DNA of 64,000 nt from an uncultured Eggerthella sp. (GTDB lineage: Bacteria > Actinomycetota > Coriobacteriia > Coriobacteriales > Eggerthellaceae), in the NCBI GenBank assembly GCA_958409415.1, contig CATYMO010000002.1:17547-81546 (forward strand), read 5' to 3'. The stretch's first letter is position 1. Each line of letters opens with the position of its first letter. Position numbers and translations under genes: made by a program. The notes below the pieces were generated by a model. It was given only the letters and a program-made list of their open reading frames with translations, was not told the origin of the DNA and did no database searches. This document shows positions 3,806-56,503 of this stretch, piece after piece.

Positions 3806-3820
3806 GAAAGGAGGCACATC

Positions 3821-4702: not shown

Positions 4703-4711
4703 GGAGGTAAC

Positions 4712-5158: not shown

Positions 5159-5163
5159 GCGTT

Positions 5164-5733
5164 ATGGAATTGAATGAAACGTTTGTCCCTCTTGCGCTCG
5201 AAGACCTGGTCGATACTGCGCGCGAATATAAGGAGCAGGGCTACCAACTGGCTCAGATGATGGGTGTGCTCAAAGAAGACGATACCGTCTGGCTTTACTA
5301 CACCTTCATCAAAGGCAACGAAGTCATCAATCGGCGCATCGAAGGGATCATCAAAGGTGAGACCGAGGTGCCTTCGCTCACGCCGCTCTATATCGCTATC
5401 TTCGTGAACGAAAACGAAGCTCACGATCTTTTTGGTGTGAACATCGTTGGCAATCTTATCGATTTCGAAGGTGCGTTCTACCGCTTCGCTGAAGGCGTTG
5501 AAGCTCCTATGAGCATCGTCTCGCCTGAGCAGCTCGCTGCGCGCGAGAAAGCGGCGAAGATCGCAAAGGCTAAGGCGGCTAAAGCAGCGAAAGCGGCAAA
5601 GGAGAAGGCGGCGAAAGAGGCTGAAGCAGCGAGCGCAGCCAGCGCTCCTACTGAAGAGCAGACCGAAGCCGCCAGCGCTCCCGCACCAGCGCCCGCTGAA
5701 GCTTCGGCGAACACGAACGAGGAAGGGGAGTAA
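5164..5733 (+). CDS. echD: Ech hydrogenase subunit EchD (NuoC-like) with a Lys/Ala/Glu-rich low-complexity C-terminal tail
   Basis: NuoC-like core (~120 aa) followed by AKAKAAKAAKAAKEKAAKEAEAASA…PAPAPAE repeats; operon position. Confidence 0.7.
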   Translation: MELNETFVPLALEDLVDTAREYKEQGYQLAQMMGVLKEDDTVWLYYTFIKGNEVINRRIEGIIKGETEVPSLTPLYIAIFVNENEAHDLFGVNIVGNLIDFEGAFYRFAEGVEAPMSIVSPEQLAAREKAAKIAKAKAAKAAKAAKEKAAKEAEAASAASAPTEEQTEAASAPAPAPAEASANTNEEGE

Positions 5734-5735
5734 CA

Positions 5736-6824: not shown

Positions 6825-6828
6825 AGCA

Positions 6829-7302
6829 ATGGGATATTTCAAACTAGGAAAAATGACGCTCAAGTCGCTCTTCAAGCGCCCTGAGACCATTCGCTACCCG
6901 TATGAGACGAAGCCTCCTGTGGAGGATCTGAAGGGTCACGTAGAGAACGACATCGTCGAATGCACGCTCTGCGGCATCTGCGCCAAGCGTTGCCCAACGG
7001 GCTGCATCACGGTGGATAAAGAGGCGGAATCTTGGACGATCAACCCGTTCGATTGCATCCAGTGCCGCACGTGCGTGCGTGAATGCCCGCAGCACTGTCT
7101 TACCATGATGCCGGAGTATCGCAAGCCCGCCTTCGAGAAGGTCGTTTCGGTCACCACGAAACCTGAGCCTACTGAAGAAGAAAAAGCAGAGCTTGCACGT
7201 AAGGAAGCGGAAAAAGCTGCTAGAATTAAGGCGGCGTTGGAAGCGAAAGCTGCACGTGAAAAAGCCAAGCAGGAACAAGCTGGCCAAACGCCTGAAGCTT
7301 AG
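6829..7302 (+). CDS. echF: Ech hydrogenase 2x[4Fe-4S] ferredoxin-like subunit EchF (NuoI-like) with a Lys/Ala/Glu-rich C-terminal tail
   Basis: Two CxxCxxCxxxCP clusters (CTLCGICAKRCP, CIQCRTCVRECP); C-terminal KPEPTEEEKAELARKEAEKAARIKAALEAKAAREKAKQEQ tail. Confidence 0.85.
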   Translation: MGYFKLGKMTLKSLFKRPETIRYPYETKPPVEDLKGHVENDIVECTLCGICAKRCPTGCITVDKEAESWTINPFDCIQCRTCVRECPQHCLTMMPEYRKPAFEKVVSVTTKPEPTEEEKAELARKEAEKAARIKAALEAKAAREKAKQEQAGQTPEA

Positions 7303-7329
7303 GCTACCGATATAGAATTCTGTGTGATT

Positions 7330-7358
7330 CGGGCCTTTTAGAGGCCCGTTTCCTTTTT
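7330..7358 (+). terminator. Rho-independent terminator after the ech operon
   Basis: GC stem CGGGCC / GGCCCG with loop TTTTAGA, followed by a T-rich tract. Confidence 0.6.
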
Positions 7359-7375
7359 GAAGAGGGAGAGAGCGC

Positions 7376-8035
7376 ATGGGCGCGAACGAGTCCTACGAGG
7401 TGTCGAACAAGATCTTCACGCTGCCGAATCTTATCTCGTTCATTCGCCTGCTCATGATCCCAATCTTTCTCGTGTTGCTCTTTCATGATCTGAACCTTGC
7501 AGCAACGCTGCTCTTTGCGATCGCCGCATCGACCGACTGGGTCGATGGTCAGGTCGCGCGCCGCACGAACCAAGTCTCTCGTTTGGGTCAGTTGCTCGAT
7601 CCCGCGGTCGATCGCTTGCTCATGATCTCGGGCGTGCTCGGGTTGTTCTTGGTGGGGCGTTTGCCGCTCTGGATCATCCTCTTCGTGGTCATTCGCGATC
7701 TTATCTTGCTCATTGGTGGCGGCTATATCTTGAAGCGCTATCAGGTGCGCGTGCCCGTTATCTATGCGGGCAAGGTTGCCACTACGCTTCTCTACATCGG
7801 TTTCGTGGGCGTGCTTCTGAACTTCCCGCTCTTCGCAGGGTTGGGCGTATGCGATTTCTCTTGGCTGCCGGGTTTCTCTGCTGCGCAGTATTCGTGGGGA
7901 TTCTGGTTCGTGTATGCCGGCCTTATCTTGAATATCTTCACCACGTCCTACTATCTCTATGCTGGTATCAAGGGTGCTCGATCAGCAAAAGCGCGTGAGC
8001 TTGCGCAAGCTTCATCGGAGAGTGCTCATGGCTAG
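7376..8035 (+). CDS. pgsA: CDP-alcohol phosphatidyltransferase (PgsA-like phosphatidylglycerophosphate or phosphatidylinositol-phosphate synthase family)
   Basis: Conserved DWVDGQVARR…LDPAVDRLL motif (D-G-x2-A-R … G-x3-D-x3-D); multi-TM protein. Confidence 0.8.
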   Translation: MGANESYEVSNKIFTLPNLISFIRLLMIPIFLVLLFHDLNLAATLLFAIAASTDWVDGQVARRTNQVSRLGQLLDPAVDRLLMISGVLGLFLVGRLPLWIILFVVIRDLILLIGGGYILKRYQVRVPVIYAGKVATTLLYIGFVGVLLNFPLFAGLGVCDFSWLPGFSAAQYSWGFWFVYAGLILNIFTTSYYLYAGIKGARSAKARELAQASSESAHG

Positions 8036-10604: not shown

Positions 10605-10606
10605 GA

Positions 10607-11929
10607 ATGAAAGGAGCGGTTGTGTACTACCAGCCCGAACTAGAAACGATGCCACGTGAGGAGCTCGACGCACTTCAGCTTGAGCGTCTCCAGAAGTTGG
10701 TCGCTTATGTCTATGAGCGCATTCCCTTCTATCGCGAGTCGTTCGATGAGGCAGGCGTTAAACCTGAAGACATCACCTCGCTCGATGATCTGCGCAAATT
10801 CCCGTTCACGGTGAAGCAGGACTTGCGCGACGCCTATCCGTTCGGCATGTTCGCGGTGCCGCAAAGCGAGGTCGCTCGCATTCACTGCTCTTCGGGCACA
10901 ACAGGCACGGCAACCGTGGTTGGTTACACTGAAAAAGACCTTGAAGTGTGGGGCGATTGCTTTGCCCGCTTCCTCTATGCAGCAGATTGTGGCCCCGATG
11001 CCGTGCTGCAAGTTGCCTATGGCTATGGTTTGTTCACGGGTGGTCTTGGCGCTCACCAGGGCGGCGAACGTGGTGGTCTTACCGTGCTTCCCATGTCCAC
11101 TGGCAATACGAAACGCCAGGTGCGTCTCATGAAAGACTTCGGTGTCGACGTGCTCGCCTGCACGCCTTCTTATGCGCTCAACATCGCTGATGTGGCGATC
11201 GAAGAGGGCTACAAGCCGGCAGAAGAATTCAAGATCCATGCAGGCATCCTTGGTGCAGAGCCCTGCTCTGAGGGCATGCGCTCAGAGATCCAAGACAAGC
11301 TCGGTATCCAGGTCTACGATATCTATGGTCTTTCCGAGGTCATGGGCCCTGGTGTGGCTTGCGAGTGTGAAGCGCAGAATGGTCTGCATGTATGCGAGGA
11401 TCATTTCATCATCGAGATCGTCGATCCGCAGACGCTCGAGCCCGTGCCTGATGGGCAATGGGGCGAAGTGGTCATGACCACGCTCTCCAAGGAATGCTCG
11501 CCGCTCATTCGCTATCGTACGCGCGACATCTCTCGCATCATCACTGGTCAGTGCGAATGCGGGCGTACCTTCCGTCGCATGGATCGCATCACGGGACGTA
11601 CTGATGACATGATGATCCTTCGTGGTGTGAACGTCTTCCCGTCGCAGATCGAGGAAGAGATCGTCTCGTTCCCCGAGATCGTTTCTCAATACCAGCTCAT
11701 CCTTACCACGCGCGGTGCGCTTGACCATGTGGAACTGCAGGTCGAGACCGTGCCTGATTTCCCCTTCGACGAAGTGGCTCGCTTGCAGAAGCTCAAGAAG
11801 GACCTCGAAAAGGCGCTCAAGGAGAATCTGCAGATCGCAGTCGAGGTGAAGATCGTTGAACCGAAGACCATCGAGCGCTCCGAAGGCAAAGCAAAACGTA
11901 TCATCGACCTGAGGGAAGGACTGAAATAA
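10607..11929 (+). CDS. paaK: Phenylacetate--CoA ligase family (aryl-acetate/aryl-acid CoA ligase, PaaK-like)
   Basis: Near-collinear with E. coli PaaK: PELETMPREEL…SSGTTG…YGYGLFTGGLGAH…DIYGLSEVMGPGVA…RYRTRD…RGVNVFPSQ. Confidence 0.85.
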   Translation: MKGAVVYYQPELETMPREELDALQLERLQKLVAYVYERIPFYRESFDEAGVKPEDITSLDDLRKFPFTVKQDLRDAYPFGMFAVPQSEVARIHCSSGTTGTATVVGYTEKDLEVWGDCFARFLYAADCGPDAVLQVAYGYGLFTGGLGAHQGGERGGLTVLPMSTGNTKRQVRLMKDFGVDVLACTPSYALNIADVAIEEGYKPAEEFKIHAGILGAEPCSEGMRSEIQDKLGIQVYDIYGLSEVMGPGVACECEAQNGLHVCEDHFIIEIVDPQTLEPVPDGQWGEVVMTTLSKECSPLIRYRTRDISRIITGQCECGRTFRRMDRITGRTDDMMILRGVNVFPSQIEEEIVSFPEIVSQYQLILTTRGALDHVELQVETVPDFPFDEVARLQKLKKDLEKALKENLQIAVEVKIVEPKTIERSEGKAKRIIDLREGLK

Positions 11930-12351
11930 TGATCTCTCAATTAACGGTATTCCTTGAAAACCGCGAAGGCCGTTTGGCCTCCGCTATCCGCACGATCGCT
12001 GAAGCCGGCATCAACATGCAGGCGATGTTCTTGGCGGACACGAAGGATTTTGGCATCTTGCGCATCTTCTGCGACACGCCTGAGAAAGCGTGCCGCATCT
12101 TGCGTGAGGCAGATTATCAAGCGAAGTTGATCGATGTCGTTGCGGTCAAGGTACCCAACGTTCCTGGATCGCTTTCGAAGCTCTTCGATTATCTCGATGA
12201 TAAAGATATCAACGTCGAATACGCGCACTGCTTCATGGTAGGCGATCATGCGATCGATATCTTGAAGGTGGCCGATCCGGCGCTCGACGTGAAGCTTGCT
12301 GCAGAAGGATTCGAAGTCTGCAAGCCTGAGGATGTGTATGCGCTCGACTAG
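11929..12351 (+). CDS. ACT-domain protein (tandem ACT, ~140 aa), paired with paaK
   Basis: Two ACT-like beta-alpha-beta-beta-alpha-beta units; start overlaps the paaK stop (ATGA), consistent with translational coupling. Confidence 0.7.
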   Translation: MISQLTVFLENREGRLASAIRTIAEAGINMQAMFLADTKDFGILRIFCDTPEKACRILREADYQAKLIDVVAVKVPNVPGSLSKLFDYLDDKDINVEYAHCFMVGDHAIDILKVADPALDVKLAAEGFEVCKPEDVYALD

Positions 12352-13771
12352 GTCGCATATCCTTGATAGAACACGGACCAAATACGCAGGCATCTTTGCT
12401 TGCGTATTTGCGTTTGTCCTGAGCGTCGCGCTTTGTCCGTGCATCGCCCAGGCTGAAGTGCGCAATTCCGATGTGGTGCTCGGTCAGACCATCGAGGAGC
12501 AAGGCTTCACCGCTGCTCAAGCACCGAACATCGTCGCCGAATACGCCTATCTCGTTTCCAGCGATGGTACGATCTACTTTGCGCGTAACGCGTATGATCA
12601 AGTTCACATCGCATCCATCACGAAGATCATGACTGCGCTCGTTGCGCTCGACTATGGGGGAGACCCTACGCAGACCGAGATCACGGTCAGTCAAGAGGCA
12701 GCGAGCATCGGTGAATCCACTGCGGGGCTAAGAGCAGGCGATGTGCTCACGCTCGAAGCTGCGATCAAGGCGCTCATGATTCCTTCCGGCAACGATGCAG
12801 GTCAAGCCTTGGCTGAATCGCTCGGGCCGAAGATCTTGGAAGAACTGCAAAAGGATAAGAGCATTCCTGAAGATGAGATGCCTCAGAATGGCTACGATGC
12901 ATTCGTCTATGCGATGAACAAGAAGGCGCTCGCTCTCGGTATGAACGATGCGCATTTCAGCAACCCGCATGGTCTTGATTACGATCAGTTCAGCGGGGAT
13001 ATGCATTGCAGTGCTCAGAACGTTTCCATCATGGCTCGTGCTGCCATGGAAAACGAGCTTTTCCGTTCGGTCGTAGCAACGCCGAAGACCACGATCTCGG
13101 TAAAGCGTGGAGAGGGTTGGGTCGACCTTCAGCTCGAGTCGACCGATCTTCTGATCGGCGTCTATGAAGGCGCTTGCGGTATCAAGACCGGTTTCACCGA
13201 AGAAGCGGGCGAGTGCTTCGCGGGTGCTTGCGAGCGCGATGGGGAGACCCTCTACGCGATCGTGCTTCATTCGAGCACGGAAGCGCAGCGCTTCACCGAC
13301 TGCACGACCATGTGGAACTGGGTCTATGACAACACGATCGATGTTCCGCTGGCTTCTTCGGACGAAGTGATCACGCTTCAGCTCAATGGTCAAGAAGTCC
13401 AAGCGCCCGTCGTGGCGAATGTGAGCCATAAAGGCTGGCTCGATAAGACCTTCAAAGCAACGATCGCAAACCCGACTGAGACGGTCGAGGTCTTCCGCTA
13501 TAACGGAAATGTGAGCCAAGAAGTGGTTTTCGACGACATTACCAACACCGTGCATGCGGGAGACAAGGTGGGTACGGTAAACTATTACCAGAATAACGAG
13601 ATCATCAAAACGGTCGACCTTATTGCCGCAGAAGACTGCGCCGGTCCGAACTTCCTTGAAGGTATCGGCATCTGGTGGAGCAGGCTTACGGGCGGCGATC
13701 AAGCAAAGGAAGCTGAGAGCGAAGTGGTCAGCTCGATGCCGATCATCTACGGTGCCGATGCCACGCGCTAA
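12338..13771 (+). CDS. dacB: D-alanyl-D-alanine carboxypeptidase (S11 serine peptidase / low-MW PBP family) with signal peptide
   Basis: SxxK (ASITK), SGN (PSGND) and KTG-like motifs; N-terminal hydrophobic signal. ATG at 12338 chosen over the upstream ORF start, which overlaps the ACT gene. Confidence 0.75.
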   Translation: MRSTRSHILDRTRTKYAGIFACVFAFVLSVALCPCIAQAEVRNSDVVLGQTIEEQGFTAAQAPNIVAEYAYLVSSDGTIYFARNAYDQVHIASITKIMTALVALDYGGDPTQTEITVSQEAASIGESTAGLRAGDVLTLEAAIKALMIPSGNDAGQALAESLGPKILEELQKDKSIPEDEMPQNGYDAFVYAMNKKALALGMNDAHFSNPHGLDYDQFSGDMHCSAQNVSIMARAAMENELFRSVVATPKTTISVKRGEGWVDLQLESTDLLIGVYEGACGIKTGFTEEAGECFAGACERDGETLYAIVLHSSTEAQRFTDCTTMWNWVYDNTIDVPLASSDEVITLQLNGQEVQAPVVANVSHKGWLDKTFKATIANPTETVEVFRYNGNVSQEVVFDDITNTVHAGDKVGTVNYYQNNEIIKTVDLIAAEDCAGPNFLEGIGIWWSRLTGGDQAKEAESEVVSSMPIIYGADATR

Positions 13772-13798
13772 GCGTATAGAGGGGTAAGAGGGAAGCAT

Positions 13799-14233
13799 AT
13801 GACAACCTGTCCAGTGTGCATGAATGAAGCGAATAACGATGGAGACTGCTGTTCGGTGTGCGGCTACCATTTCCAAGATGCCACCGAAGCATTCGAGGCG
13901 ATATCCATCGATACCGAAGGTGAGCGTGCTCATGCTACCGATCAGGCACCTGCATCGCTTCGCGTGTGCTATGGCAAGCAGGAAGGTCTGGTGTTTCCGC
14001 TCGAGAGCGATTTCATCGAGATCGGCCGTTCTCCGCAATGTGGCGTGATGCTCAACGATATGACCGTTTCGCGCGTTCACGCTGAAATGGAGAAGATCAA
14101 CGGCGAATGGACCATCACGGACCGCGATTCGTTCAATGGCGTGTGGGTGAATAACGAAGCGATCAAGAATGCTGTGTTGAACCCAGGCGATCTTCTGCAG
14201 ATCGGCTGCTTCGTTCTTCGTTTCGTTGAATAA
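13799..14233 (+). CDS. Zinc-ribbon plus FHA-domain protein
   Basis: N-terminal CPVC…CSVCGYHF zinc ribbon; C-terminal FHA core (GRSPQCGVMLND…SRVHAEM…NGVWVN). Confidence 0.7.
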   Translation: MTTCPVCMNEANNDGDCCSVCGYHFQDATEAFEAISIDTEGERAHATDQAPASLRVCYGKQEGLVFPLESDFIEIGRSPQCGVMLNDMTVSRVHAEMEKINGEWTITDRDSFNGVWVNNEAIKNAVLNPGDLLQIGCFVLRFVE

Positions 14234-14290
14234 TCGCCCCTTCAAGATCTCGTCTTTTGAATCTTTTGAAAATACGAACAAGGATTACGT

Positions 14291-16018
14291 ATGGAATTTT
14301 TATCAGGTAATGAAGCGATCGCGCGTGGTGCGTGGGAAGCAGGGTGTCATATTGGCACTGCCTATCCAGGAACACCTTCTACCGAGACCATGGAAACCTT
14401 CGCAACGCTTCCTGGGGTCTACGCGGAATGGTGTCCGAACGAAAAGGTCGCGCTCGAGGTTGCGATGGGTGCTTCTGCAGCGGGTGCACGTGTGCTCGTT
14501 ACGATGAAGCACGTGGGCGTGAATGTGTGTGCCGATCCGCTTTTCACTGCCTCGTATACCGGCGTTAACGGTGGGGTGCTTTTGCTCGCCGCCGACGATC
14601 CGGGCATGTTCTCTTCGCAGAACGAGCAAGACAGTCGCTATTATGCCATGGCTTCTCTTGTACCCATTCTTGAGCCTGCCGATTCTCAGGAAGCGCTCGA
14701 TTTCGCACGCAGCGCCTACGATCTTTCCGAGCAGTTCGATGTTCCCTTCATGATGCGCTCTACCGTACGCATCTCGCACACGAAAACCCCTGTTGAAGTG
14801 GGGGAGCGCACCGAGGTTGAGAAGAAGCCTTACGAGAGCGACCCTACCAAATGGGTCATGATGCCCGCCTTCGCGAAGCCGCGCCGTAAGGTCGTGGTCA
14901 AGCGCACGGAAACGCTGAAGGAATGGGTGGAAACGTGCCCGTTCAATCGCGTGGAGAAGGGCGATACGAGCATCGGCATCATTTGCGCTGGTGCGGTCTA
15001 TGAGCATGTTAAGGAAGCTCTGGGTGACGTGAGCATCTTCAAGCTGGGTGTGACCTGGCCGCTGCCCGCAGACGCGCTCGCGCGATTTGCTGAGAGCGTG
15101 GATAAGGTGTACGTGGTCGAAGAGGCTTCGACCTATCTTTCGGATGCAGTACGTTCATGCGGTATCGCGCTCGATGAATTCGTTAACCCCTTGCCTGCCG
15201 ATGGCGAGGTTCATCCTGAAGATGTCCTGCGGGCGTTCGGAAAAGAAACTCCTGCGCACCTCGATACTCCTGGCGATGTTCCTAACCGTCCGCCTGCTCT
15301 TTGTGCGGGCTGCCCTCATCGTATCGTCTTTCGTGAGCTCGCACGCAACAAAGCCATCGTCACGGGTGATATCGGCTGCTATACGCTCGGCGCACTGCCG
15401 CCGCTCTCAGCCATGGATACTACGCTCGACATGGGCGCCTCTGTTTCGATGGCGCACGGCTTCGAGCTCGCAATGGCGGGAAGCGACCATCGTCCGATCG
15501 TGGGTGTGATCGGCGATTCCACGTTCGCGCATTCTGGCCTTTCGAGCCTCATCAACACGGTCTATAACAAGGGTGCTGGCACGATCTGCATCCTCGATAA
15601 TCGCACGACCGCCATGACCGGCCAGCAGGGCAATCCGTTCAATGGGGTGACGCTGCAAAACCGCGAGAGCAACGAGCTCGATCTACCCGTTGTCCTCGAT
15701 GCTATCGGCGTCGATCACGTGCAGGTGGTCGATGCGTTCGATCGTGATGCGGTACGGGGTGCGCTCAAAGAAGCGCTCGGCCGCGACGAACTTGACGTGA
15801 TCGTGTTCCGCGGTCCTTGCGTGCTGCTTTCTAAAACGAAGGATACGCCCTACTGCGTGAACGGGAACTGCACGGGCTGTGGTGTGTGTGTGACGCTGGG
15901 ATGCCCCGCAATTTCAACCGATCGCGAAACGGGCTTTTCGTCGATCGATACCGATATGTGCAATGGATGCTCGCAGTGCGCTCAGTACTGCGCGTTCGAT
16001 GCGATCGAGCGTCTGTAG
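14291..16018 (+). CDS. iorA: Indolepyruvate:ferredoxin oxidoreductase alpha subunit
   Basis: Characteristic N-terminus MEFLSGNEAIARGAWEAGCHIGTAYPGTPSTE; TPP motif GDIGCYTLG; C-terminal 2x[4Fe-4S] (CTGCGVCV…CPAI, CNGCSQCAQYC). Confidence 0.9.
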   Translation: MEFLSGNEAIARGAWEAGCHIGTAYPGTPSTETMETFATLPGVYAEWCPNEKVALEVAMGASAAGARVLVTMKHVGVNVCADPLFTASYTGVNGGVLLLAADDPGMFSSQNEQDSRYYAMASLVPILEPADSQEALDFARSAYDLSEQFDVPFMMRSTVRISHTKTPVEVGERTEVEKKPYESDPTKWVMMPAFAKPRRKVVVKRTETLKEWVETCPFNRVEKGDTSIGIICAGAVYEHVKEALGDVSIFKLGVTWPLPADALARFAESVDKVYVVEEASTYLSDAVRSCGIALDEFVNPLPADGEVHPEDVLRAFGKETPAHLDTPGDVPNRPPALCAGCPHRIVFRELARNKAIVTGDIGCYTLGALPPLSAMDTTLDMGASVSMAHGFELAMAGSDHRPIVGVIGDSTFAHSGLSSLINTVYNKGAGTICILDNRTTAMTGQQGNPFNGVTLQNRESNELDLPVVLDAIGVDHVQVVDAFDRDAVRGALKEALGRDELDVIVFRGPCVLLSKTKDTPYCVNGNCTGCGVCVTLGCPAISTDRETGFSSIDTDMCNGCSQCAQYCAFDAIERL

Positions 16019-50470: not shown

Positions 50471-50560
50471 GTCGGAGTGGTGGAACGGCAGACACGCTAG
50501 CTTGAGGTGCTAGTGCCCATTTGAACGGGTGTGCGGGTTCAAATCCCGCCTCCGACACCA
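50471..50560 (+). tRNA. tRNA-Leu (anticodon GAG), class II with long variable arm
   Basis: GTCGGAGTGGTGGAACGGCAGAC…; anticodon loop TTGAGGT; long variable arm; TPsiC GGTTCAAATCC; CCA encoded. Confidence 0.85.
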
Positions 50561-50665
50561 GCTAAAGAAGTAAGGCTCTCGGAAACGAGGGCCTTTTTCA
50601 TACTATGGAACCAAAGTTCAGTACGATCTTCTGCTGAAGCATCGTTGCGATCACCTCGGAGCGTT

Positions 50666-51619
50666 ATGTCTCATTTGAGCCTACAGAATCATGAAAAGCG
50701 AACGAGCACCGTGAGGCGTGTGCTGCTTGCGGTGCTCTTGCTCAATCTTGCGGTGGCACTCGCGAAGTTCGTTTACGGAACCATCTCGTATTCGACCGCA
50801 ATGCAAGCCGATGGCATCCATTCGATCTTCGATTCTGCGGGCAACGTAGTTGGCCTCATTGGAATCAGCCTTGCTACGCGTCCAGCCGATAAAGAGCACC
50901 CCTACGGTCATTTCAAGCTGGAGACCTTCGCTTCGCTTATGATCGGGCTCATGCTCATCTTCGCCGCCTATCAAGTTGGGTCGAGTGCGGTCACTTCGCT
51001 CATTGAAGGCAGCTATCACACGGAAGTTACGGCTATCTCGTTCGTTGTCATGGTGGGCACGCTCGCGGTCAATCTGTTCGTGACTACCTACGAACGCAGG
51101 ATGGGGAATCGCCTTAAGAGTGACATCCTCAAAGCCGATGCTGCGCATACGCTCTCAGATTGCCTCGTTTCGATCGGCGTTATCGTTGGGCTCATCTTGG
51201 TCGCCTGCGGGATCGAGATGGCAGACGACATCATGGCGCTCATCGTCATGGTGGCTATTCTGTTCACCGCCTTCGATATCTTCAAGAGTGCGTTCGCTAC
51301 CTTCACCGACGAAGCACGTATTCCTGCAGCGGAGATTCGTGGAGTGGTCGAGAGCGTAGAGGGGGTTCAAGAAGCCCATCAGATTCGTACGCGCGGACTG
51401 CAGGGCGAGATCTACCTCGATCTGCACATTCTGGTCGATCCTGAGATGACGGTCATTGCCTCGCATAAGGTGGTCTCAGAGATCGAACAGAAGCTCTCAG
51501 AGACCTTCCCTGAGGTCCAAGACATCCTCATCAATGTTGAGCCGAACGACGAAGAGCATCGTATGGATAAGGGCTCCATCGGCAATACGGCTACGAATAA
51601 AACAACTACCGAAGAATAG
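50666..51619 (+). CDS. Cation diffusion facilitator (CDF) family divalent-metal efflux transporter
   Basis: Six TM helices with HSIFDS…D and HxxxD motifs plus a C-terminal cytoplasmic metallochaperone-like domain. Start moved to an internal ATG because the longer ORF overlaps the tRNA-Leu. Confidence 0.8.
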   Translation: MSHLSLQNHEKRTSTVRRVLLAVLLLNLAVALAKFVYGTISYSTAMQADGIHSIFDSAGNVVGLIGISLATRPADKEHPYGHFKLETFASLMIGLMLIFAAYQVGSSAVTSLIEGSYHTEVTAISFVVMVGTLAVNLFVTTYERRMGNRLKSDILKADAAHTLSDCLVSIGVIVGLILVACGIEMADDIMALIVMVAILFTAFDIFKSAFATFTDEARIPAAEIRGVVESVEGVQEAHQIRTRGLQGEIYLDLHILVDPEMTVIASHKVVSEIEQKLSETFPEVQDILINVEPNDEEHRMDKGSIGNTATNKTTTEE

Positions 51620-51645: not shown

Positions 51646-52614
51646 CTAGCTTTCATCGCCAGACGCATTGGGGTGTTCGATGTAAGTGGTGACCGTGGGA
51701 TTCGCCTCGATATAGGCACGCAATTTCTTGATATAGCGCTTTGCCAGTTCGCTCAAGTCATGCGCAGCTTGGTGAATGTAGCCAACGGTCATCTTCTCAT
51801 CTGCTTCGAGCGGAATGGCAACGATGCCTGCATTCATCTCATCGGAGAGCACGCCGGTTGCAATGGTGTACCCGTCGAAATTGGTCAATAAGTTCGAGAG
51901 CGTTCCGCGGTCCGAATAGGTGATCTGCTTCTTGTGGGGAAGATGGCTGAGCGGCTCTTCTGAGAAGAAGAATGAATTATTCGCGCCCTGCTCGAACGAA
52001 TAGCGTGTGTAGTCTTCAAGCTGTTCGGGCTTGACCGATGTTTCTTGCGCAAGGGGATGGTGTTCGCCAACAAAGACATGGGGCTCTGCTTCAAAGAGCG
52101 CAACGAATTCGAGCCCTGCATCGCTGAGCGCTTTCGATATCACGCGCTTGTTGAAATTGCTGAGATAGAGCACGCCCAACTCGCTTCGATAACTTTTTAC
52201 GTCTTCGATGATCTCAGCGGTACGAGTTTCGCGAAGCGTGAACTCATATTCGTCTTGATCGTATTCTTCGACGAGGTCAACGAAGGCTTTTACGCAGAAC
52301 GCATAGTGCTGCGAGGAGATGGAGAGCTTCTGCACTGCTTTATTGCCCGTGCCGCTATAGCGCGCTTCGAGCAGATCGACCTGCTCGAGGACTTGGCGGG
52401 CATAGCCAACGAATTCGACACCTTCCTGAGTGAGGGTGATGCCGCGATTGCTGCGATTGAATATCTCGATCCCGAGCTCTTGTTCGGCATCCTTGATGGC
52501 AGTGGAGAGTGCCGGCTGTGACACATACAGGTTCTGGCTCGCGGCATTGATCGAGCCGCATTCGACCACTTCAGTGATATAGCGCAGTTGTTGGAGCGTC
52601 AGATTCGATTGCAT
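51646..52614 (-). CDS. LysR-family transcriptional regulator
   Basis: wHTH (LQQLRYITEVVECGSINAASQNLYVSQPALSTAIKDAEQELG) plus substrate-binding domain. Confidence 0.8.
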   Translation of the reverse strand: MQSNLTLQQLRYITEVVECGSINAASQNLYVSQPALSTAIKDAEQELGIEIFNRSNRGITLTQEGVEFVGYARQVLEQVDLLEARYSGTGNKAVQKLSISSQHYAFCVKAFVDLVEEYDQDEYEFTLRETRTAEIIEDVKSYRSELGVLYLSNFNKRVISKALSDAGLEFVALFEAEPHVFVGEHHPLAQETSVKPEQLEDYTRYSFEQGANNSFFFSEEPLSHLPHKKQITYSDRGTLSNLLTNFDGYTIATGVLSDEMNAGIVAIPLEADEKMTVGYIHQAAHDLSELAKRYIKKLRAYIEANPTVTTYIEHPNASGDES

Positions 52615-52758
52615 AGCGTTTCGGTGCCTCTTGATGGTGAGTTGTTTATGAACATACCGTATTGTAGCGCAACGGGACTCATTGCTCCGAAGGGGAGGGA
52701 GCAAAAAATGAAGACCCGACAGAGTGCCGGGTCTTCATAGATCAATTGAGTCGAGTGT

Positions 52759-53595
52759 TTAGAATACGGTGAGCACCGCGCCCGAATAATTCTCATTGAT
52801 GTAGTCGCGTACTTCATCGCTCGTCAAAGCCTTAGCGAGTGCTTTGATCTTCTCTTTGTCCTGATTGCCGTCCTTCACTACGAGCAGGTTAGCGTAGGTC
52901 TGAGCAGCCAGCGAATCGCTCGTCTCTTTCACGAGCGCTTTATCGATCAGATCGCCCTCAAGAGCGTAGTTCGCATTGATACCAGCGAGTGCAACATCAT
53001 CGATGACCGTTGGAACGGTTGCAGCCTCGATCTCGACGATCTCGAGATTCTTGGGGTTGCTCGTGATGTCTGCCTTCGTTGCGGTCACGCCTGCATCATC
53101 GTTGAGTTCGATGAGTCCGTTCTCTTCGAGCAGCAGCAGTGCGCGCGCTTCATTGGTAGCATCGTTGGGTACGGCGACCTTAGCACCATTAGGGATCTCG
53201 GAGAGATCAGTGTATTTGGTCGAGTACAGACCGAAGGGCTCATAATGAACGCCAACCACGTCTACCAGGTGTGTTCCCTGCTCTTCGTTGAAGTTGTCAA
53301 GATAGGGCTTGTGCTGGAAGTAGTTCGCATCGACCTCTTCCTGCTCGGTTGCCGTATTGGGTAAGACGTAGTCGGTGAACTCTTTCACCTCGAGGGTGTA
53401 GCCCTCTTTCTCAAGCGCAGGTTTCACAACATCGTTCAAGATCTCGGCATGGGGGGTTGGGACCGCCGCGATGGTGATGGTCTTGTCTTCAGACGATGAA
53501 CCGCCGCCCGAGCAGCCAGTGAGCGCCAGGAGGGAGAGCGCAAGTGCTGCCAGCGCAGCAACAAGAAGCTTAGGGAATCGTTTTGCTTTTTCCAT
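52759..53595 (-). CDS. metQ: MetQ/NlpA-family lipoprotein (methionine-type ABC substrate-binding protein); orphan, with no metN or metI adjacent
   Basis: Lipoprotein signal (LLALTGCSGG lipobox) and NlpA-family body; RBS AAAGGAA. Confidence 0.8.
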   Translation of the reverse strand: MEKAKRFPKLLVAALAALALSLLALTGCSGGGSSSEDKTITIAAVPTPHAEILNDVVKPALEKEGYTLEVKEFTDYVLPNTATEQEEVDANYFQHKPYLDNFNEEQGTHLVDVVGVHYEPFGLYSTKYTDLSEIPNGAKVAVPNDATNEARALLLLEENGLIELNDDAGVTATKADITSNPKNLEIVEIEAATVPTVIDDVALAGINANYALEGDLIDKALVKETSDSLAAQTYANLLVVKDGNQDKEKIKALAKALTSDEVRDYINENYSGAVLTVF

Positions 53596-53932
53596 TGAAT
53601 GAGTTCCTTTCTGTGTCTTCCTTATCGCGTGGCGTCCTTTTGATCCGCAAGCGATCAAGCTCGAATTCAATGGTGACTAGTCTAAACATTGCGTTTTCTG
53701 AGCACAATCCTTCTTGTTATCATCAGTTCTTCTAACTGGTTATAGCGAACGTATGCTTGGAGCGAGATGCTGCATTTGCAGCGCAGGTGATCACGAGAAA
53801 ACCGACTCGATCGCGCGTAGTCTTATATGCAGAGGGCTTGCATAACCCGCTCTTACCCCTTGCTAGCTTTTGGCGTATCATAGAAGCGTTTCATAGGCTA
53901 TTGAATAATCCAATCTAAGAAAGGTCGTTCTT

Positions 53933-55162
53933 ATGATCGATGTAGAAGAATTGCGAAGCGCGCCCATAGCGGTCCTCGGTGGTGGCGCAGTTGGTAAGAC
54001 GTGCGGCGCGGATTGCGCGCTTGCAGGGCAAGAAGTTCGTATCTGCGATCTCGATCCCTTCTTCGAATCAAGCCTTGGTACGGTCGAGCGGACCGGTATC
54101 ACTATCGGTCAGAAGCTTCCCGGTACGCAGACGAAATACGGGTTCGCTCGTTATGGTCGCGCAGAATTCGCGAAGGTCACCAATTCGGTCGCAGAGGCCG
54201 TGAAGGGCGCGAAGCTCATCGTGGTCGGCATTCCTTCTATCGCTCATGAGGTGTTCTTCAGTGCGCTCATCCCGTGCCTTGAAGATGGTCAGATCATCCA
54301 CATCATCCCGGACAACTATGGCACGCTGAAACTGCGCAAGATGATGCGTGAGGCAGGTTGCACGAAGAAGGTCATCGTAGGCGGCTGGTCGAGCGCTCCT
54401 TACGGCACGCGCGTTGATACTGAAGGCGGCATCATGAATGCGCATGTGAGCTTGGTCTATCGTGCGATCACCTTGCGTGGTGCAGCGTTGCCGATGACCG
54501 ATCAGGAAGACTTCCTTGAAAGCTCCAAGGCGCTTGGGTGCTTTGATGCCATAACCCAGGGTGATGGTGTGGTCAGCGGCGAGACCGTGCTCGATATCGG
54601 TTTCTCGAACGTGAACCCCGTTATCCATGTTCCGGGCACCCTCTTGGGCGTTTCCACGATGGAGAACTTCAACACGGTGCTCCATATGAACAAGCACGAT
54701 TACAGTATCTATAGTCACAGTTTCTGCCCGTCTATCTCAGAGGTGCAGTATCAGTTCTACAACGAAGAGATCGCGCTCGCTAATGCGATCGGCGTTGGTA
54801 TCCAGCCTTTCGATAAAGAGGTCTTCTATCAACGTACGAGCGTGCTCGGCCAGGAATACATGGGCGAGGGCTGCGACGTTCCGTTCGACGAGGAATGGGA
54901 AGTGGGCTATGGCACCGGTCCGTTCACGATCCAGAATCGCTACGTAACGGAAGATGTGCCGGTCGGCTGTCATGTCTATCATGAACTGGGCAAGAAGTTC
55001 GGCGTTCCGACGCCCATCATCGACTCGATGATCGTGCTCGGCGGCGTTATGAACAAGACCGACTATTTTGAAAGCGGCCTTAAGCTCGAGGATCTGGGCA
55101 TTGGCCATATGGATAAAGAGGCGTTACTCGCGTATCTGAATGAGGGCGTCTATACCGAATAA
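53933..55162 (+). CDS. Opine (octopine/nopaline) dehydrogenase-family NAD(P)-dependent oxidoreductase
   Basis: N-terminal GxGxxG (VLGGGAVGK), ~410 aa, two-domain ODH-like architecture. Confidence 0.65.
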   Translation: MIDVEELRSAPIAVLGGGAVGKTCGADCALAGQEVRICDLDPFFESSLGTVERTGITIGQKLPGTQTKYGFARYGRAEFAKVTNSVAEAVKGAKLIVVGIPSIAHEVFFSALIPCLEDGQIIHIIPDNYGTLKLRKMMREAGCTKKVIVGGWSSAPYGTRVDTEGGIMNAHVSLVYRAITLRGAALPMTDQEDFLESSKALGCFDAITQGDGVVSGETVLDIGFSNVNPVIHVPGTLLGVSTMENFNTVLHMNKHDYSIYSHSFCPSISEVQYQFYNEEIALANAIGVGIQPFDKEVFYQRTSVLGQEYMGEGCDVPFDEEWEVGYGTGPFTIQNRYVTEDVPVGCHVYHELGKKFGVPTPIIDSMIVLGGVMNKTDYFESGLKLEDLGIGHMDKEALLAYLNEGVYTE

Positions 55163-55196
55163 CCGTGCGCAAGCACCTTATGTTAGGAGTCGTGGC

Positions 55197-55958
55197 ATGA
55201 CGTGGCAACGCCCGTTCGTGAATTCTCAAGACCTTGCGGGGACCTTCTCGGTTCCCGCTCACTTCACTTCAGGCCATGCGATCGGCGTGATCGCGGTCGA
55301 TCTGAAGTATCCGAAGCTTCCTGGAAATGTGGTGAATGCGACCACGTTCGATTTTCCGGTGCTCTATAAGAAGGTCGAATTCGACATCGAGCTGCTCTTT
55401 GAAGGAGCTCCTGAGCTTGAGATGGTCGTTGTCGAGGCTGCCAAAGAACTGGAGGCTGAAGGCGTGCGTGCGATCGTGGGAGCGTGCGGATACTTCGCGC
55501 ACTTCCAAAAGCAGGTTGCGGATGCGGTAAGTGTCCCTGTCTTCCTTTCGAGCCTCTGCCAGCTTCCGCTCATCAAGCTTGGTTTGAAGCAAGATCAGAA
55601 GATCGCGGTGTTCGCGGCGAGCGCAGATAATATCGACGATGAGATATTGAGCGGGGTCGGATCGCAGTTGTATGATCTCATCATCCAAGATGTAGGCTCG
55701 ATGGAGAGCTTCGCCCCGATCCGCTGGGGCGAGGAGACGCTCGACAACAAATGGCTTACCGAAGATCTCGAACAGACGGCCCATGACCTGGTCGAGCAAC
55801 ATCCAGAGATCGGCGCGATCCTGCTCGAATGCAGCGATCTGCCACCATACGCCTATGCCATCCAAGCAGCAACGGGATTGCCGGTATTCGACTTCATCAC
55901 GCTCATCAAATGGGCGCATTCCGCTGTTGCGCAAACGCCCTATTATGGATATTTTTAA
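55197..55958 (+). CDS. Asp/Glu/hydantoin racemase-superfamily protein (AMDase/maleate-isomerase-like)
   Basis: ~250 aa, paired Cys-containing halves (GACGYF… and ECSDLPPY) typical of the two-base racemase/decarboxylase fold; RBS AGGAG 8 nt upstream. Confidence 0.6.
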   Translation: MTWQRPFVNSQDLAGTFSVPAHFTSGHAIGVIAVDLKYPKLPGNVVNATTFDFPVLYKKVEFDIELLFEGAPELEMVVVEAAKELEAEGVRAIVGACGYFAHFQKQVADAVSVPVFLSSLCQLPLIKLGLKQDQKIAVFAASADNIDDEILSGVGSQLYDLIIQDVGSMESFAPIRWGEETLDNKWLTEDLEQTAHDLVEQHPEIGAILLECSDLPPYAYAIQAATGLPVFDFITLIKWAHSAVAQTPYYGYF

Positions 55959-56026: not shown

Positions 56027-56101
56027 GGGCGATTAGCTCAGCGGGAGAGCATCACCTCGACACGGTGGGGGCCACTGGTTCGATCCCAGTATCGCCCACC
56101 A
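56027..56101 (+). tRNA. tRNA-Val (anticodon GAC)
   Basis: GGGCGATTAGCTCAGCGGGAGAGC…; anticodon loop TCGACAC; GGTTCGATCCC; CCA encoded. Confidence 0.85.
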
Positions 56102-56117
56102 TTTAAACAGACAACAT

Positions 56118-56193
56118 GCGGACGTGGCTCAGTTGGTAGAGCATCACCTTGCCAAGGTGAGGGTCGCGGGTTCGAACCCCGTCGTCCGCTCCA
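56118..56193 (+). tRNA. tRNA-Gly (anticodon GCC), copy 1
   Basis: GCGGACGTGGCTCAGTTGGTAGAGC…; anticodon loop TTGCCAA; GGTTCGAACCC; CCA encoded. Confidence 0.9.
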
Positions 56194-56202
56194 TGAATTC
56201 TT

Positions 56203-56233
56203 ATGACCGGTTTTATGCCGGTCATTTTTTTTG
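56203..56233 (+). terminator. Rho-independent terminator between the two tRNA-Gly copies
   Basis: ATGACCGG / CCGGTCAT 8-bp stem with loop TTTTATG, followed by T8. Confidence 0.7.
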
Positions 56234-56276
56234 TTCTTGAACATCAGCGGCGAGTCGGTATAATAGGTTCTTGCGC

Positions 56277-56352
56277 GCGGACGTGGCTCAGTTGGTAGAG
56301 CATCACCTTGCCAAGGTGAGGGTCGCGGGTTCGAACCCCGTCGTCCGCTCCA
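56277..56352 (+). tRNA. tRNA-Gly (anticodon GCC), copy 2 (identical)
   Basis: Same 76-nt sequence as 56118-56193. Confidence 0.9.
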
Positions 56353-56394
56353 GTGCACCTTTCAGTCGTTTGAATCATTCGCAACGGCTTTTAT

Positions 56395-56469
56395 GGCGAC
56401 GTGGCCAAGTGGTAAGGCAGAGGCCTGCAAAGCCTTTACCCCCGGTTCGAATCCGGGCGTCGCCTCCAT
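56395..56469 (+). tRNA. tRNA-Cys (anticodon GCA)
   Basis: GGCGACGTGGCCAAGTGGTAAGGC…; anticodon loop CTGCAAA; GGTTCGAATCC; CCA encoded. Confidence 0.85.
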
Positions 56470-56478
56470 ACAAGCTCA

Positions 56479-56503
56479 AGACCGCTCGGCGGTCTTTTTT
56501 ATA
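56479..56503 (+). terminator. Rho-independent terminator after tRNA-Cys
   Basis: AAGACCGC / GCGGTCTT stem with 3-nt loop, followed by TTTTTT. Confidence 0.7.

Follow-up and report, generated by a model that had tools for sequence, protein, structure and literature searches.

[quoted passage not shown] The TAA stop codon of the ODH gene (55160–55162) is separated from the ATG of the PRK07475 gene (55197) by 34 nt, and both this gap and the AGGAG ribosome-binding site in it, as given in the original prediction, can be read directly from the sequence. No homologues of MetN, MetI, or a methionine-type aminotransferase were found by tblastn in the whole 64-kb window; as predicted, the MetQ gene is therefore an orphan, a lipoprotein gene without its ABC partners. 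Full-text literature searches found no paper describing the ODH–PRK07475 pair.

Table 1. Positions of the genes and other features of the locus, numbered from the first letter of the window.
Feature	Coordinates	Strand	Evidence or remark
CDF transporter	50666..51619		Profile match and gene call
LysR-family transcriptional regulator, 322 aa	51646..52614	-	PF00126 E 1.1e-19, PF03466 E 1.2e-11; gene call in window-identical contigs; candidate regulator of the module
Terminator-like hairpin, MetQ-like/LysR interval	52708..52738	-	14-bp stem followed by T run; predicted from pattern match only
NlpA/MetQ-family substrate-binding lipoprotein, 278 aa, lipobox LTGC	52759..53595	-	PF03180 E 1.4e-86
Dyad-containing conserved block TGTTATCATCAGTTCTTCTAACTGGTTATAG, divergent promoter region	53715..53745	+	Intergenic alignment; candidate LysR operator
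ODH-family NAD(H)-type dehydrogenase, CENDH-like, 409 aa	53933..55162	+	PF02317 E 4.2e-30
AGGAG ribosome-binding site, 7 nt 5' of the second gene's ATG	55185..55189	+	Direct sequence reading
Asp/Glu/hydantoin-racemase-superfamily two-Cys protein, 253 aa	55197..55958	+	PF01177 and NF005679/PRK07475, both above cut-offs

The first protein of the pair belongs to the ODH family, as had been proposed, with a PF02317 Octopine_DH match over residues 217–373 (105.2 bits against a cut-off of 30) and a likeness in sequence and fold to 1BG6, the N-(1-D-carboxyethyl)-L-norvaline dehydrogenase (CENDH) of Arthrobacter sp. 1C, which has the same two-domain architecture and Pfam domain; the match of the window protein to PF01210 is weak. 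CENDH is the closest characterised homologue, with an alignment of near full length (E 9.5e-20, 25% identity). The N-terminus aligns with those of CENDH and octopine dehydrogenase (OcDH) and reads as a Rossmann dinucleotide-binding region of the NAD type, with GGGAVG at residues 16–21 and the acidic beta-2 end ICDLD. Residue H232 and the motif N-R336-Y-V-T-E-D341 align with the catalytic motifs of both enzymes, the scallop octopine dehydrogenase having the almost identical stretch NRYLTEDIP; by alignment, H232, R336, and D341 are equivalent to His212, Arg324, and Asp329 of OcDH, whose catalytic roles have been described (PMC2924402), and to their CENDH counterparts. Five residues of the window protein (H232, R336, Y337, E340, and D341) are invariant across 16 ODH homologues. 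The ODH-specific C-terminal domain and the catalytic residues, on which the assignment had been made to depend beforehand, are thus present. Foldseek with a structure model of moderate quality (pLDDT 72, with active-site loops below 50) returned 1BG6 as the top match (E 4.8e-22, TM 0.68/0.78), followed by 3IQD and 3C7x. In contrast to CENDH, the window ODH is 50 residues longer, has two insertions near the active site, and belongs to a type whose gene nearly always precedes a PRK07475 gene and is linked to methionine transport. To our knowledge, neither such a partner nor such a tie has been reported for CENDH. ODH-family enzymes are known to create or oxidise a D-centre at the carbon derived from the keto acid.

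The second protein matches PF01177 (E 8.9e-9, 35.9 bits against a cut-off of 31) and NCBIfam NF005679/PRK07475 (259.7 bits against 231), and these matches, both cysteines, and the fold bear out its predicted placement in the racemase superfamily. Its cysteines C97 (in GACGY) and C212 (in LLECSDLPPYA) are invariant among the homologues compared, and their surroundings align with the Cys motifs of hydantoin racemase 2EQ5, aspartate racemase 1JFL, and the aspartate racemase homologue PH1733 (2ZSK). The AF2 model (pLDDT 82) gave aspartate, glutamate, and hydantoin racemases and arylmalonate decarboxylase as top Foldseek matches, with TM values of 0.5–0.65, those of the aspartate and hydantoin racemases being about 0.6. 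The sequence lies far nearer the algal Alma-type DMSP-lyase homologues than any solved racemase, with 33% identity over the full length to DLH_A of Prymnesium (E 8e-40) and 26% to Alma1, and DMSP-lyase-type proteins are among its top relatives in a library of 1.84 billion proteins. In alignments with Alma1 and DLH_A, C97 and C212 coincide with Cys-containing motifs, both Cys residues critical in Alma1 being kept, and the stretch ILLEC(T/S)(E/D)LPPYA is common to these proteins; the DMSP-lyase motif IRAILLECTEL equals the window's IGAILLECSDL at 8 of 11 positions. On these alignments, the window protein belongs to the subfamily of bacterial proteins nearest the algal DMSP lyases, Alma-type proteins being its closest characterised relatives, and by context, both are linked with methionine-derived sulfur chemistry. 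The window protein differs from the Alma type in being bacterial, single-domain, and encoded in an operon with a dehydrogenase, and the flanks DCGF/NCGF and ECTE/ECTQ described for DMSP lyases (PMC10349084) are not those of the window protein, which has GACGY and LECSD, or of the ODH-linked clade, which has ACG[YF] and ECSD. The same study reports bacterial PRK07475 homologues to be without DMSP-lyase activity (PMC10349084). The fusions found among PRK07475 relatives were tandem duplications or a subtilase fusion, none of them with ODH. Distant relatives with 46% identity, none of which has an ODH neighbour, occur in peptidase clusters or adjoin MttB-family genes.

The best PDB matches of the lipoprotein are 4IB2 (5.5e-81) and 4K3F (1.6e-75), with E. 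coli MetQ 4YAH at 3e-48. All seven positions listed as contacting methionine in E. coli MetQ (PMC6739813) are kept in the window protein (Y69, F86, H88, Y91, R144, N202, and N229), and the seven are conserved in 54–56 of 56 ODH-linked MetQ copies; a MetQ-type gene adjoins the ODH gene in 54 loci. Two further features were considered as specificity clues. The change of E42 to His was set aside, as the Tp32 lipoprotein (1XS5) and B. subtilis MetQ (4GOT) share the His; 4GOT was deposited as a methionine-binding lipoprotein. A four-residue insertion before Y-x-N occurs in 54 of 54 ODH-adjacent MetQ copies of the main subfamily and not in E. coli MetQ, PA5505, or the MetNI-linked paralogue in locus L047; it was downgraded as a clue because the loop of B. 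subtilis MetQ is of similar length and the NlpA partner in Enterococcus raffinosus is without the insertion. In the divergent promoter region, the block TGTTATCATCAGTTCTTCTAACTGGTTATAG occurs only once in the window. When the intergenic regions of related loci are aligned, few blocks are conserved and this is one of them; 10 related loci have the core pattern GTTATC-N8-14-TAACTGGTTAT at this position, and the block is a candidate LysR operator. No S-box or T-box was found upstream in eight operon loci or in the window, which, with LysR genes often adjacent, fits control by a protein factor and not by a SAM- or tRNA-sensing leader RNA.

Approximately 400 matching loci of the module were found in gut bacteria in a species-representative genome set. 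Among the 85 related loci with enough downstream sequence to be informative, the PRK07475 gene lies near the ODH gene in 82, immediately adjacent in 75, a recurrence that argues against chance pairing and shows the pair to be co-conserved outside the window genome; the ODH gene is without this partner in three loci. The pair is found in Eggerthellaceae, in Clostridia, and on a megaplasmid of E. raffinosus, the last having a minimal unit of ODH, PRK07475, and an NlpA lipoprotein. After dereplication into 30 ODH groups, a MetQ-type gene was nearby in 23 and a LysR gene in 10, Lachnospiraceae included, in agreement with the linkage proposed earlier, while an adjoining MetN and MetI pair was present in 16, a methionine-type aminotransferase in 8, and a CDF gene in 2, these being close relatives of the same synteny. 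The linked MetQ-type genes belong to two different NlpA subfamilies in three bacterial classes; some Eggerthellaceae loci have no adjacent MetQ gene.

Many Lachnospiraceae and Clostridiales carry the operon metN-metI-metQ-ODH-PRK07475-aminotransferase, the last product of which scores 311–328 bits against the NCBIfam model "methionine aminotransferase" PRK09082. In one locus (L098), genes for a SAM-dependent methyltransferase, an MccB-like cystathionine gamma-lyase (563.6 bits against a cut-off of 594), and a CysK/MccA-like protein lie directly upstream; CysK, Rrf2, NifS, and IscU genes occur near the pair in further loci, and MetK and MetRS genes recur. In other lineages, the pair is accompanied by a four-subunit POR/VOR-type 2-oxoacid:ferredoxin oxidoreductase, which scores best as pyruvate-type PorA, together with TRAP or YfcC-type carboxylate carriers and butyrate-kinase-like (acyl kinase) genes. 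The transporter types vary (TRAP, YfcC-like, EutH-like, MFS, and an SsuA-like binding protein); the TRAP binding protein has no relative of solved structure. The ODH protein is approximately 65% identical across all genomic contexts; the ODH-like gene on S. meliloti pSymB has no racemase partner.

The pair, the MetQ-type lipoprotein, and the LysR regulator probably form a module for the uptake and conversion of methionine analogues. The sequence data establish which families the genes belong to, that their catalytic residues and their pairing are conserved, and that they lie in methionine and 2-oxoacid gene contexts; the substrate, the direction, and every chemical step are inferred. The NlpA/MetQ protein would deliver a methionine-sized compound, in this organism through a MetNI translocator encoded elsewhere. 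The ODH-family enzyme, dependent on NAD(H), would interconvert 2-oxo-4-methylthiobutyrate (KMTB, also MTOB), the presumed central intermediate, and a D-configured 2-substituted 4-methylthiobutyrate, preferably the 2-hydroxy analogue HMTB (also MTHB) or alternatively D-methionine, while the two-Cys enzyme would epimerise C2 by taking off and returning a proton, making both enantiomers usable. KMTB could then be converted to L-methionine by the methionine-type aminotransferase, whose gene is part of the operon in many lineages, or be oxidatively decarboxylated by the POR/VOR-type ferredoxin oxidoreductase to yield ATP. That the ODH and a C2 epimerase together convert a 2-hydroxy methionine analogue and/or D-methionine to KMTB, which is then transaminated to L-methionine or oxidised, is a tentative reading, to which we give somewhat less than an even chance.

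This conversion is favoured because the two genes are paired across Eggerthellaceae, Clostridia, and Enterococcus, and methionine is implicated by the frequent MetQ-type neighbours, their full set of methionine contacts, the metNIQ operons, and the aminotransferase. The POR/VOR-type oxidoreductase, carboxylate carriers, and acyl kinases point to a 2-oxoacid hub, and the aminotransferase, Met-to-Cys, metNIQ, and oxidoreductase contexts suggest that this hub is KMTB, in preference to a system for making opines. Also in favour, the Alma DMSP lyases, to which the second enzyme is related, act on a methionine-derived sulfur carboxylate lacking the alpha-amino group, from whose alpha-carbon they remove a proton. 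Several points tell against the favoured reading. The ODH retains the complete opine-type His/Arg/Asp motif, and its active-site loops are modelled with low confidence; a racemase alone would do for D-methionine; the aminotransferase is found in a minority of the groups, three ODH loci have no partner, and the reading does not account for an AbfD-family gene found in the TRAP/oxidoreductase context. All characterised PF02317 enzymes known to us make or cleave secondary-amine opines, and we know of no precedent in that family for 2-hydroxyacid or D-amino-acid dehydrogenase activity, nor of a two-Cys racemase for aliphatic 2-hydroxy acids.

A dehydrogenase paired with a racemase, as in the window, is known from dadA-dadX. 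There, DadA is an FAD enzyme of an unrelated family linked to the respiratory chain and DadX is PLP-dependent, whereas the module combines an NAD-type ODH-family enzyme with a cofactor-independent two-Cys protein, mostly in gut anaerobes. Use of D-methionine by E. coli, which converts it to L-methionine by oxidative deamination and then transamination, follows the same logic, in which the Met ABC system MetNIQ takes up a form other than L-methionine, a dehydrogenase yields the keto acid, and a transaminase yields L-methionine, and alpha-hydroxy and alpha-keto analogues are known to satisfy methionine auxotrophs (PMC3274233).

The opine chemistry of the ODH family suggests other roles. In CENDH-like catabolism, an N-(1-D-carboxyalkyl)-L-methionine or related secondary-amine dicarboxylate would be imported by the lipoprotein and a transporter and cleaved by the ODH to L-methionine and pyruvate, or to KMTB and an amino acid, the two-Cys enzyme epimerising the diastereomer that the ODH does not use or a D-amino acid set free in the reaction. 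CENDH, the closest characterised homologue in sequence and fold, accepts L-methionine and pyruvate as substrates, and the full catalytic motif is retained; dicarboxylates would suit the TRAP and YfcC/DcuC-type carriers, the neighbouring oxidoreductase is best matched by pyruvate-type PorA, and an adjacent LysR gene fits substrate-inducible catabolism. Such catabolism is nevertheless unlikely, with a minor but not negligible chance, as the canonical closed methionine pocket, with its Asn ligand for the free alpha-amino group, is retained in the MetQ-type protein, orphan MetQ copies would have to share a MetNI translocator for methionine-sized solutes, the methionine-type aminotransferase and the near-obligatory racemase-fold partner are left unexplained, and we know of no abundant methionine opine in guts. 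Synthesis of an opine-type metabolite or metallophore, in which the two-Cys enzyme would supply a D-amino acid for the ODH to condense with a 2-oxo acid and the lipoprotein would re-import the product, recalls the staphylopine system CntKLM: its CntK and CntM are likewise a racemase and an ODH-family enzyme, its importer adjoins the biosynthetic genes, and a CDF exporter lies 2 kb away in the window. We regard it as very improbable. The nicotianamine-synthase-like CntL gene is absent from the window-identical contigs and all annotated neighbourhoods, the racemase-type protein is of another fold family than CntK, the importer is of the MetQ/MetNI type and not the Opp/Nik type, the recurrent partners are catabolic or salvage enzymes, and the recurrent regulator is LysR, with no conserved exporter or metal regulator. 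With CntL lacking and CDF not co-conserved with the pair, the metal-binding angle of the original prediction was dropped; its enzyme families, co-conservation, MetQ/LysR link, and exclusion of a staphylopine-type cluster have held.

The kinship with DMSP lyases raises the prospect that the PRK07475 enzyme, by abstracting a carbonyl-adjacent proton, expels a sulfur leaving group, either methanethiol or dimethyl sulfide. The substrate would be KMTB, 3-methylthiopropionate, or a sulfonium derivative of S-methylmethionine, and the ODH-family enzyme would supply it or reduce a reactive unsaturated product. The full-length similarity, the shared motif, the two Alma1-critical cysteines, and the rank of DMSP-lyase-type proteins among the relatives speak for such a C–S lyase, and the oxidoreductase and acyl-kinase contexts would yield 3-methylthiopropionyl-CoA or the free acid. 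A thioether is, on chemical grounds, a poor leaving group, loss of sulfur as gas agrees poorly with the contexts of Met-to-Cys and aminotransferase genes, and no ene-reductase is known to us in the ODH family; with the differing flanks and the reported inactivity of bacterial homologues outside the ODH-linked clade, we consider lysis distinctly unlikely. The module might instead act on another hydrophobic D- or L-amino acid, a 2-hydroxy acid, or a cyclic sulfur imino acid, MetQ adjacency reflecting no more than shared sulfur or nitrogen regulation, as the loci without MetQ, the varied transporters, and the peptidase and MttB-family contexts of distant PRK07475 relatives without ODH would allow. 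This is unlikely, for MetQ-type genes of two subfamilies are linked in three classes, the neighbourhoods repeatedly hold genes for a methionine-type aminotransferase, MetK, MetRS, and Met-to-Cys conversion, and the ODH identity across contexts argues for one conserved substrate.

The favoured conversion of methionine analogues also resembles the first steps of the DMSP transamination pathway of algae and bacteria (Met to MTOB to MTHB), since the module has a methionine-type aminotransferase and a candidate MTOB/MTHB oxidoreductase, with a SAM-dependent methyltransferase in some loci, beside a DMSP-lyase relative. Its hosts, in contrast, are gut bacteria, and its direction would more likely be salvage (MTHB to Met). 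There is an outside but appreciable chance that the module is a bacterial counterpart, possibly the evolutionary source, of the algal methionine-to-DMSP enzymes, its ODH being a new type of MTOB/MTHB oxidoreductase and its PRK07475 protein either an MTHB-acting ancestor of Alma lyases or a PLP-independent C–S lyase releasing methanethiol in the gut. If so, both enzyme families would gain an activity so far unreported for them. In the DMSP field, experiments have yet to settle which enzyme is the MTOB/MTHB oxidoreductase (PMC11306096). The module offers a tractable bacterial system for this question and for the role of bacterial Alma-like proteins, with Anaerotardibacter muris, Faecalicatena contorta, Lachnospiraceae bacterium LC2019, and E. 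raffinosus as cultured carriers, and an ODH-family protein working with an algal DMSP-lyase relative would extend both families. In the gut, methionine is in short supply and competed for; its D-form and its keto and hydroxy analogues occur as metabolites of microbes, and both DL-methionine and the hydroxy analogue are added to feed on a wide scale. If the module decides the use of these analogues, it would bear on cross-feeding, feed efficiency, and the formation of volatile sulfur compounds.

The unit predicted for this locus was recovered as drawn from the sequence: two open reading frames in the same direction, 34 nt apart and with an AGGAG motif before the second, lie opposite divergent lipoprotein and LysR genes. 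A terminator-like hairpin is listed among the divergent upstream features, between these two genes. The unit is closed by a tRNA cluster that begins 69 nt past gene 2, in which the two tRNA-Gly copies have identical Rfam scores. Farther upstream, the 5' end of the longest CDF ORF runs into a tRNA-Leu(GAG) gene, so the real CDF start must lie downstream, as called in identical contigs. The GC content of the pair (0.53–0.55) is like that of its surroundings, and the locus is identical in contigs labelled Eggerthella sp. CAG:298 and uncultured Eggerthella sp. UMGS26.

Coordinates of features in the window and in related loci (L handles)
Locus	Feature	Position	Strand	Remarks
Window	tRNA-Leu(GAG)	50471-50560
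Window	Longest CDF ORF	50531-51619
Window	CDF transporter gene	50666..51619		start from identical contigs
Window	LysR regulator gene	51646..52614	divergent	upstream of pair
Window	NlpA/MetQ-type lipoprotein gene	52759..53595	divergent	upstream of pair; lipobox LTGC
Window	Conserved 31-bp block	53715-53745		putative LysR operator
Window	Gene 1, ODH family	53933..55162	+	409 aa; stop TAA 55160-55162
Window	AGGAG	55185-55189		7 nt 5' of gene 2 ATG
Window	Gene 2, PRK07475	55197..55958	+	253 aa; ATG at 55197
Window	tRNA cluster	56027-56468		Val-GAC, Gly-GCC, Gly-GCC, Cys-GCA
Window	Terminator-like hairpins	56203-56225; 56478-56496		with tRNA cluster
L023	ODH gene	5665-6897		PRK07475 absent
L029	ODH gene	10001-11233		PRK07475 absent
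L055	ODH gene	3777-5021		PRK07475 absent
L005	Isomerase-family gene	3464-4921		6VJR, E 2e-79
L079	Pair and downstream genes	12200-15830		'Candidatus Crickella merdequi'
L095	PRK07475 relative and MttB-family gene	5314-7768		JGI metagenome contig
L096	PRK07475 relative and MttB-family gene	3857-6311		JGI metagenome contig
L100	Three-gene unit	11857-14792		E. raffinosus plasmid p1_Er676, NZ_CP104765.1
L100	IS110 transposase	6037-7287		few kb from unit

Opine dehydrogenases (ODHs) make or oxidise a D-configured carbon adjoining a carboxylate. Gene 1 encodes a genuine member of this family, as originally predicted: it scores 105 bits against PF02317 (cut-off 30), and residues 9–393 align with N-(1-D-carboxyethyl)-L-norvaline dehydrogenase (CENDH) of Arthrobacter (PDB 1BG6, E 9.5e-20), the alignment with scallop octopine dehydrogenase being weaker. 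H232, within NPVIH, and the motif N-R336-Y-V-T-E-D341-V-P, which reads NRYLTEDIP in octopine dehydrogenase, align with their equivalents in both enzymes; H232, R336, Y337, E340 and D341 are invariant in 16 homologues 64–84% identical to the gene 1 protein. The roles of the catalytic residues have been described for octopine dehydrogenase (PMC2924402). The AlphaFold model (pLDDT 72, pTM 0.81; active-site loops poorly modelled) matches CENDH first (E 4.8e-22) and octopine dehydrogenase second, followed by ketopantoate reductases, D-mandelate dehydrogenase and staphylopine-type dehydrogenases. The Pfam score, the CENDH-first fold and the catalytic motif thus set gene 1 apart from dehydrogenases of the glycerol-3-phosphate or ketopantoate-reductase type.

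The gene 2 protein clears the thresholds of PF01177 and of PRK07475, an NCBIfam subfamily known only as 'hypothetical protein'. [quoted passage not shown] Both cysteines are invariant in 21 homologues. The AlphaFold model (pLDDT 82) matches aspartate, glutamate and hydantoin racemases and arylmalonate decarboxylase, with TM values of only 0.5–0.65.

PRK07475 is the bacterial subfamily nearest to the algal Alma dimethylsulfoniopropionate (DMSP) lyases, which are defined by two critical cysteines in the contexts DCGF/NCGF and ECTE/ECTQ, and bacterial PRK07475 proteins are reported to be without DMSP-lyase activity (PMC10349084). By sequence, the nearest studied relatives of gene 2 are DMSP lyases: full-length alignment of its protein gives 33% identity with the algal homologue DLH_A of Prymnesium parvum (E 8e-40; sequence from the supplement of PMC10349084), and Alma1 shares 26% (E 9e-15). 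When 1.84 billion representative proteins were searched exhaustively, the DCGF and ECTE signature turned up in many of the top-scoring relatives, and some have duplicated domains like those described for algal homologues. The gene 2 protein itself, with GACGY and ECSD, fails the published criteria for a DMSP lyase. The clade linked to ODH genes is compact: among full-length representatives at 50% identity, a single one is more than 50% identical to the query. In two metagenome contigs (L095 and L096), a 46%-identical relative, from a protein family in which some members carry the NCBI label Dehalococcoidia, divergently adjoins an MttB-family methyltransferase gene, which suggests that other PRK07475 members act on onium compounds.

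A one-genome-per-species scan returned 399 loci encoding a gene 1 relative, of which the best 80 were fetched; with metagenome contigs added, ORFs were called and clustered in 93 loci. In 85 loci the sequence runs on for 900 bp or more past the ODH gene; 82 of these have a PRK07475 gene near it, directly following it in 75, so the pair is well conserved elsewhere. The gene is truly absent from L023, L029 and L055, with none within 5–10 kb of the ODH gene; in L023 and L029, Rrf2, CysK, NifS and IscU genes come after it. Carriers include Eggerthellaceae and related Coriobacteriia, Lachnospiraceae, Oscillospiraceae-type Clostridia and 'Candidatus Crickella', and the pair also occurs on a 1.1-Mb megaplasmid of Enterococcus raffinosus (63% and 61% identity). 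The Eggerthellaceae-type ODH of the window is approximately 65% identical to homologues annotated as Clostridiales or Lachnospiraceae, a level across lineages that points to a single conserved function and, probably, to horizontal transfer of the pair. On the megaplasmid, the three-gene unit comprises ODH, PRK07475 and an NlpA lipoprotein of another subfamily, and the nearby IS110-family transposase hints that it is mobile. Contigs with an ODH 82–85% identical to that of the window (L022, L027, L042, L043, L046, L051, L057 and L059) are labelled as E. coli, Akkermansia, Bacteroidaceae, Agathobacter, Prevotella, Alloprevotella or Succinivibrio 'cleanbin' genomes, most likely through mis-binning rather than real host range.

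Neighbours were counted after dereplication at 90% ODH identity into 30 groups. PRK07475 lies nearby in 28 groups, a MetQ-type lipoprotein in 23, MetN and/or MetI in 16, a LysR regulator in 10, a methionine-type aminotransferase in 8 and a CDF transporter in 2; the original interpretation is borne out in part, its methionine link holding and its metal link falling away. All seven residues through which E. coli and N. meningitidis MetQ contact methionine are retained in the MetQ proteins linked to ODH. The typical Clostridia operon reads metN-metI-metQ-ODH-PRK07475-aminotransferase. The aminotransferase scores 311–328 bits against the NCBIfam 'methionine aminotransferase' model, under its cut-off of 420, and has an SQGFPDF motif that we take to be YbdL/MtnE-like. 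Directly 5' of the pair in L098 lie genes for a SAM-dependent methyltransferase, an MccB-like cystathionine gamma-lyase/homocysteine desulfhydrase (563.6 bits, cut-off 594) and a CysK/MccA-like enzyme, a trio that resembles the B. subtilis Met-to-Cys set yrrT-mccA-mccB. Further loci contain CysK, Rrf2, NifS and IscU genes, or MetK and MetRS.

Another set of contexts, with no MetQ gene, takes three forms: TRAP DctPQM, an AbfD-family protein, a four-subunit POR/VOR-type 2-oxoacid:ferredoxin oxidoreductase, ODH, PRK07475 and a EutH-like gene; an oxidoreductase, LysR, two butyrate-kinase-like genes, ODH and PRK07475; or a YfcC-type carrier, an Xaa-Pro-dipeptidase-like amidohydrolase, a MocR regulator, ODH, PRK07475 and the methionine-type aminotransferase. 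In L005, L006, L008, L065 and L071, a 4-hydroxybutyryl-CoA dehydratase/vinylacetyl-CoA isomerase-family gene stands between the TRAP genes and the POR/VOR-type oxidoreductase, immediately 5' of the pair, and it has no convincing place in any of the proposed pathways. In L079, genes for a ParA/MinD-like ATPase and for two HGD-D/double-cubane-cluster-type proteins come after the pair; these proteins could form an ATP-driven reductase or dehydratase system. In four Lachnospiraceae loci (rumen-type RUG MAGs L085 and L087, MAG L089 and isolate LC2019, L092), glutamate-cysteine-ligase-like and EgtC-like class-II amidotransferase genes follow the module (approximately 15.1–17.3 kb in L087 and L085), which hints at a gamma-glutamyl sulfur intermediate.

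Neither the window nor the regions upstream of eight Clostridia operons yielded an S-box or T-box. The divergent intergenic region of the window and its relatives is mostly unconserved save for a few short blocks; the conserved 31-bp block contains GTTA-N13-TAAC-N2-GTTA and is proposed as the LysR operator.

Taken together, the neighbours point to methionine and a 2-oxo acid. The aminotransferase and the ferredoxin oxidoreductase both consume a 2-oxo acid, which for methionine is 2-oxo-4-methylthiobutyrate (KMTB, or MTOB), and VOR-type enzymes accept KMTB. The conserved core, we infer, is a methionine-type binding protein, an ODH-family dehydrogenase and a cofactor-free proton-shuffling enzyme, followed by 2-oxo-acid-using enzymes. 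The most parsimonious interpretation is a 'stereo-redox' module acting at C2 of the methionine skeleton: the dehydrogenase would interconvert KMTB and a D-configured 2-substituted acid, the two-cysteine enzyme would epimerise C2 so that both enantiomers become usable, and KMTB would proceed to L-methionine or to an acyl-CoA. Tentatively, and at somewhat under an even chance, we adopt this reading for the 2-hydroxy analogue of methionine (HMTB, or MTHB) or D-methionine. HMTB is favoured because all three enzymes, dehydrogenase, epimerase and aminotransferase, would then have a necessary role, because TRAP and YfcC-type carboxylate carriers would make sense for it, and because the closest characterised relatives of gene 2 deprotonate a sulfur carboxylate without an alpha-amino group. 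For D-methionine, E. coli offers a precedent of oxidative deamination followed by transamination, and methionine auxotrophs can be fed by the hydroxy and keto analogues (PMC3274233).

CENDH-like cleavage of a methionine opine best fits the chemistry of the ODH family and a pyruvate-type oxidoreductase, but is unlikely given the canonical closed methionine pocket, the aminotransferase and the near-obligatory PRK07475 partner, all of which it fits poorly. A substrate unrelated to methionine is also unlikely. The homology of gene 2 to Alma-type DMSP lyases would favour C-S lyase chemistry; the motif mismatch, the lack of activity reported for bacterial homologues, and gene contexts that retain sulfur make this distinctly improbable. 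Biosynthesis of an opine or metallophore has very little probability, as CntL, a conserved exporter and a metal regulator are all missing.

A full-text literature search found no paper describing the ODH and PRK07475 pair; the gene families are known, and the module is undescribed in the literature searched. The MTOB reductase step of DMSP synthesis lacks an experimental assignment, a predicted candidate having been inactive (PMC11306096). The E. raffinosus megaplasmid unit offers a cultured facultative host for experiments, and the predicted activities, if true, would be new for both enzyme families.
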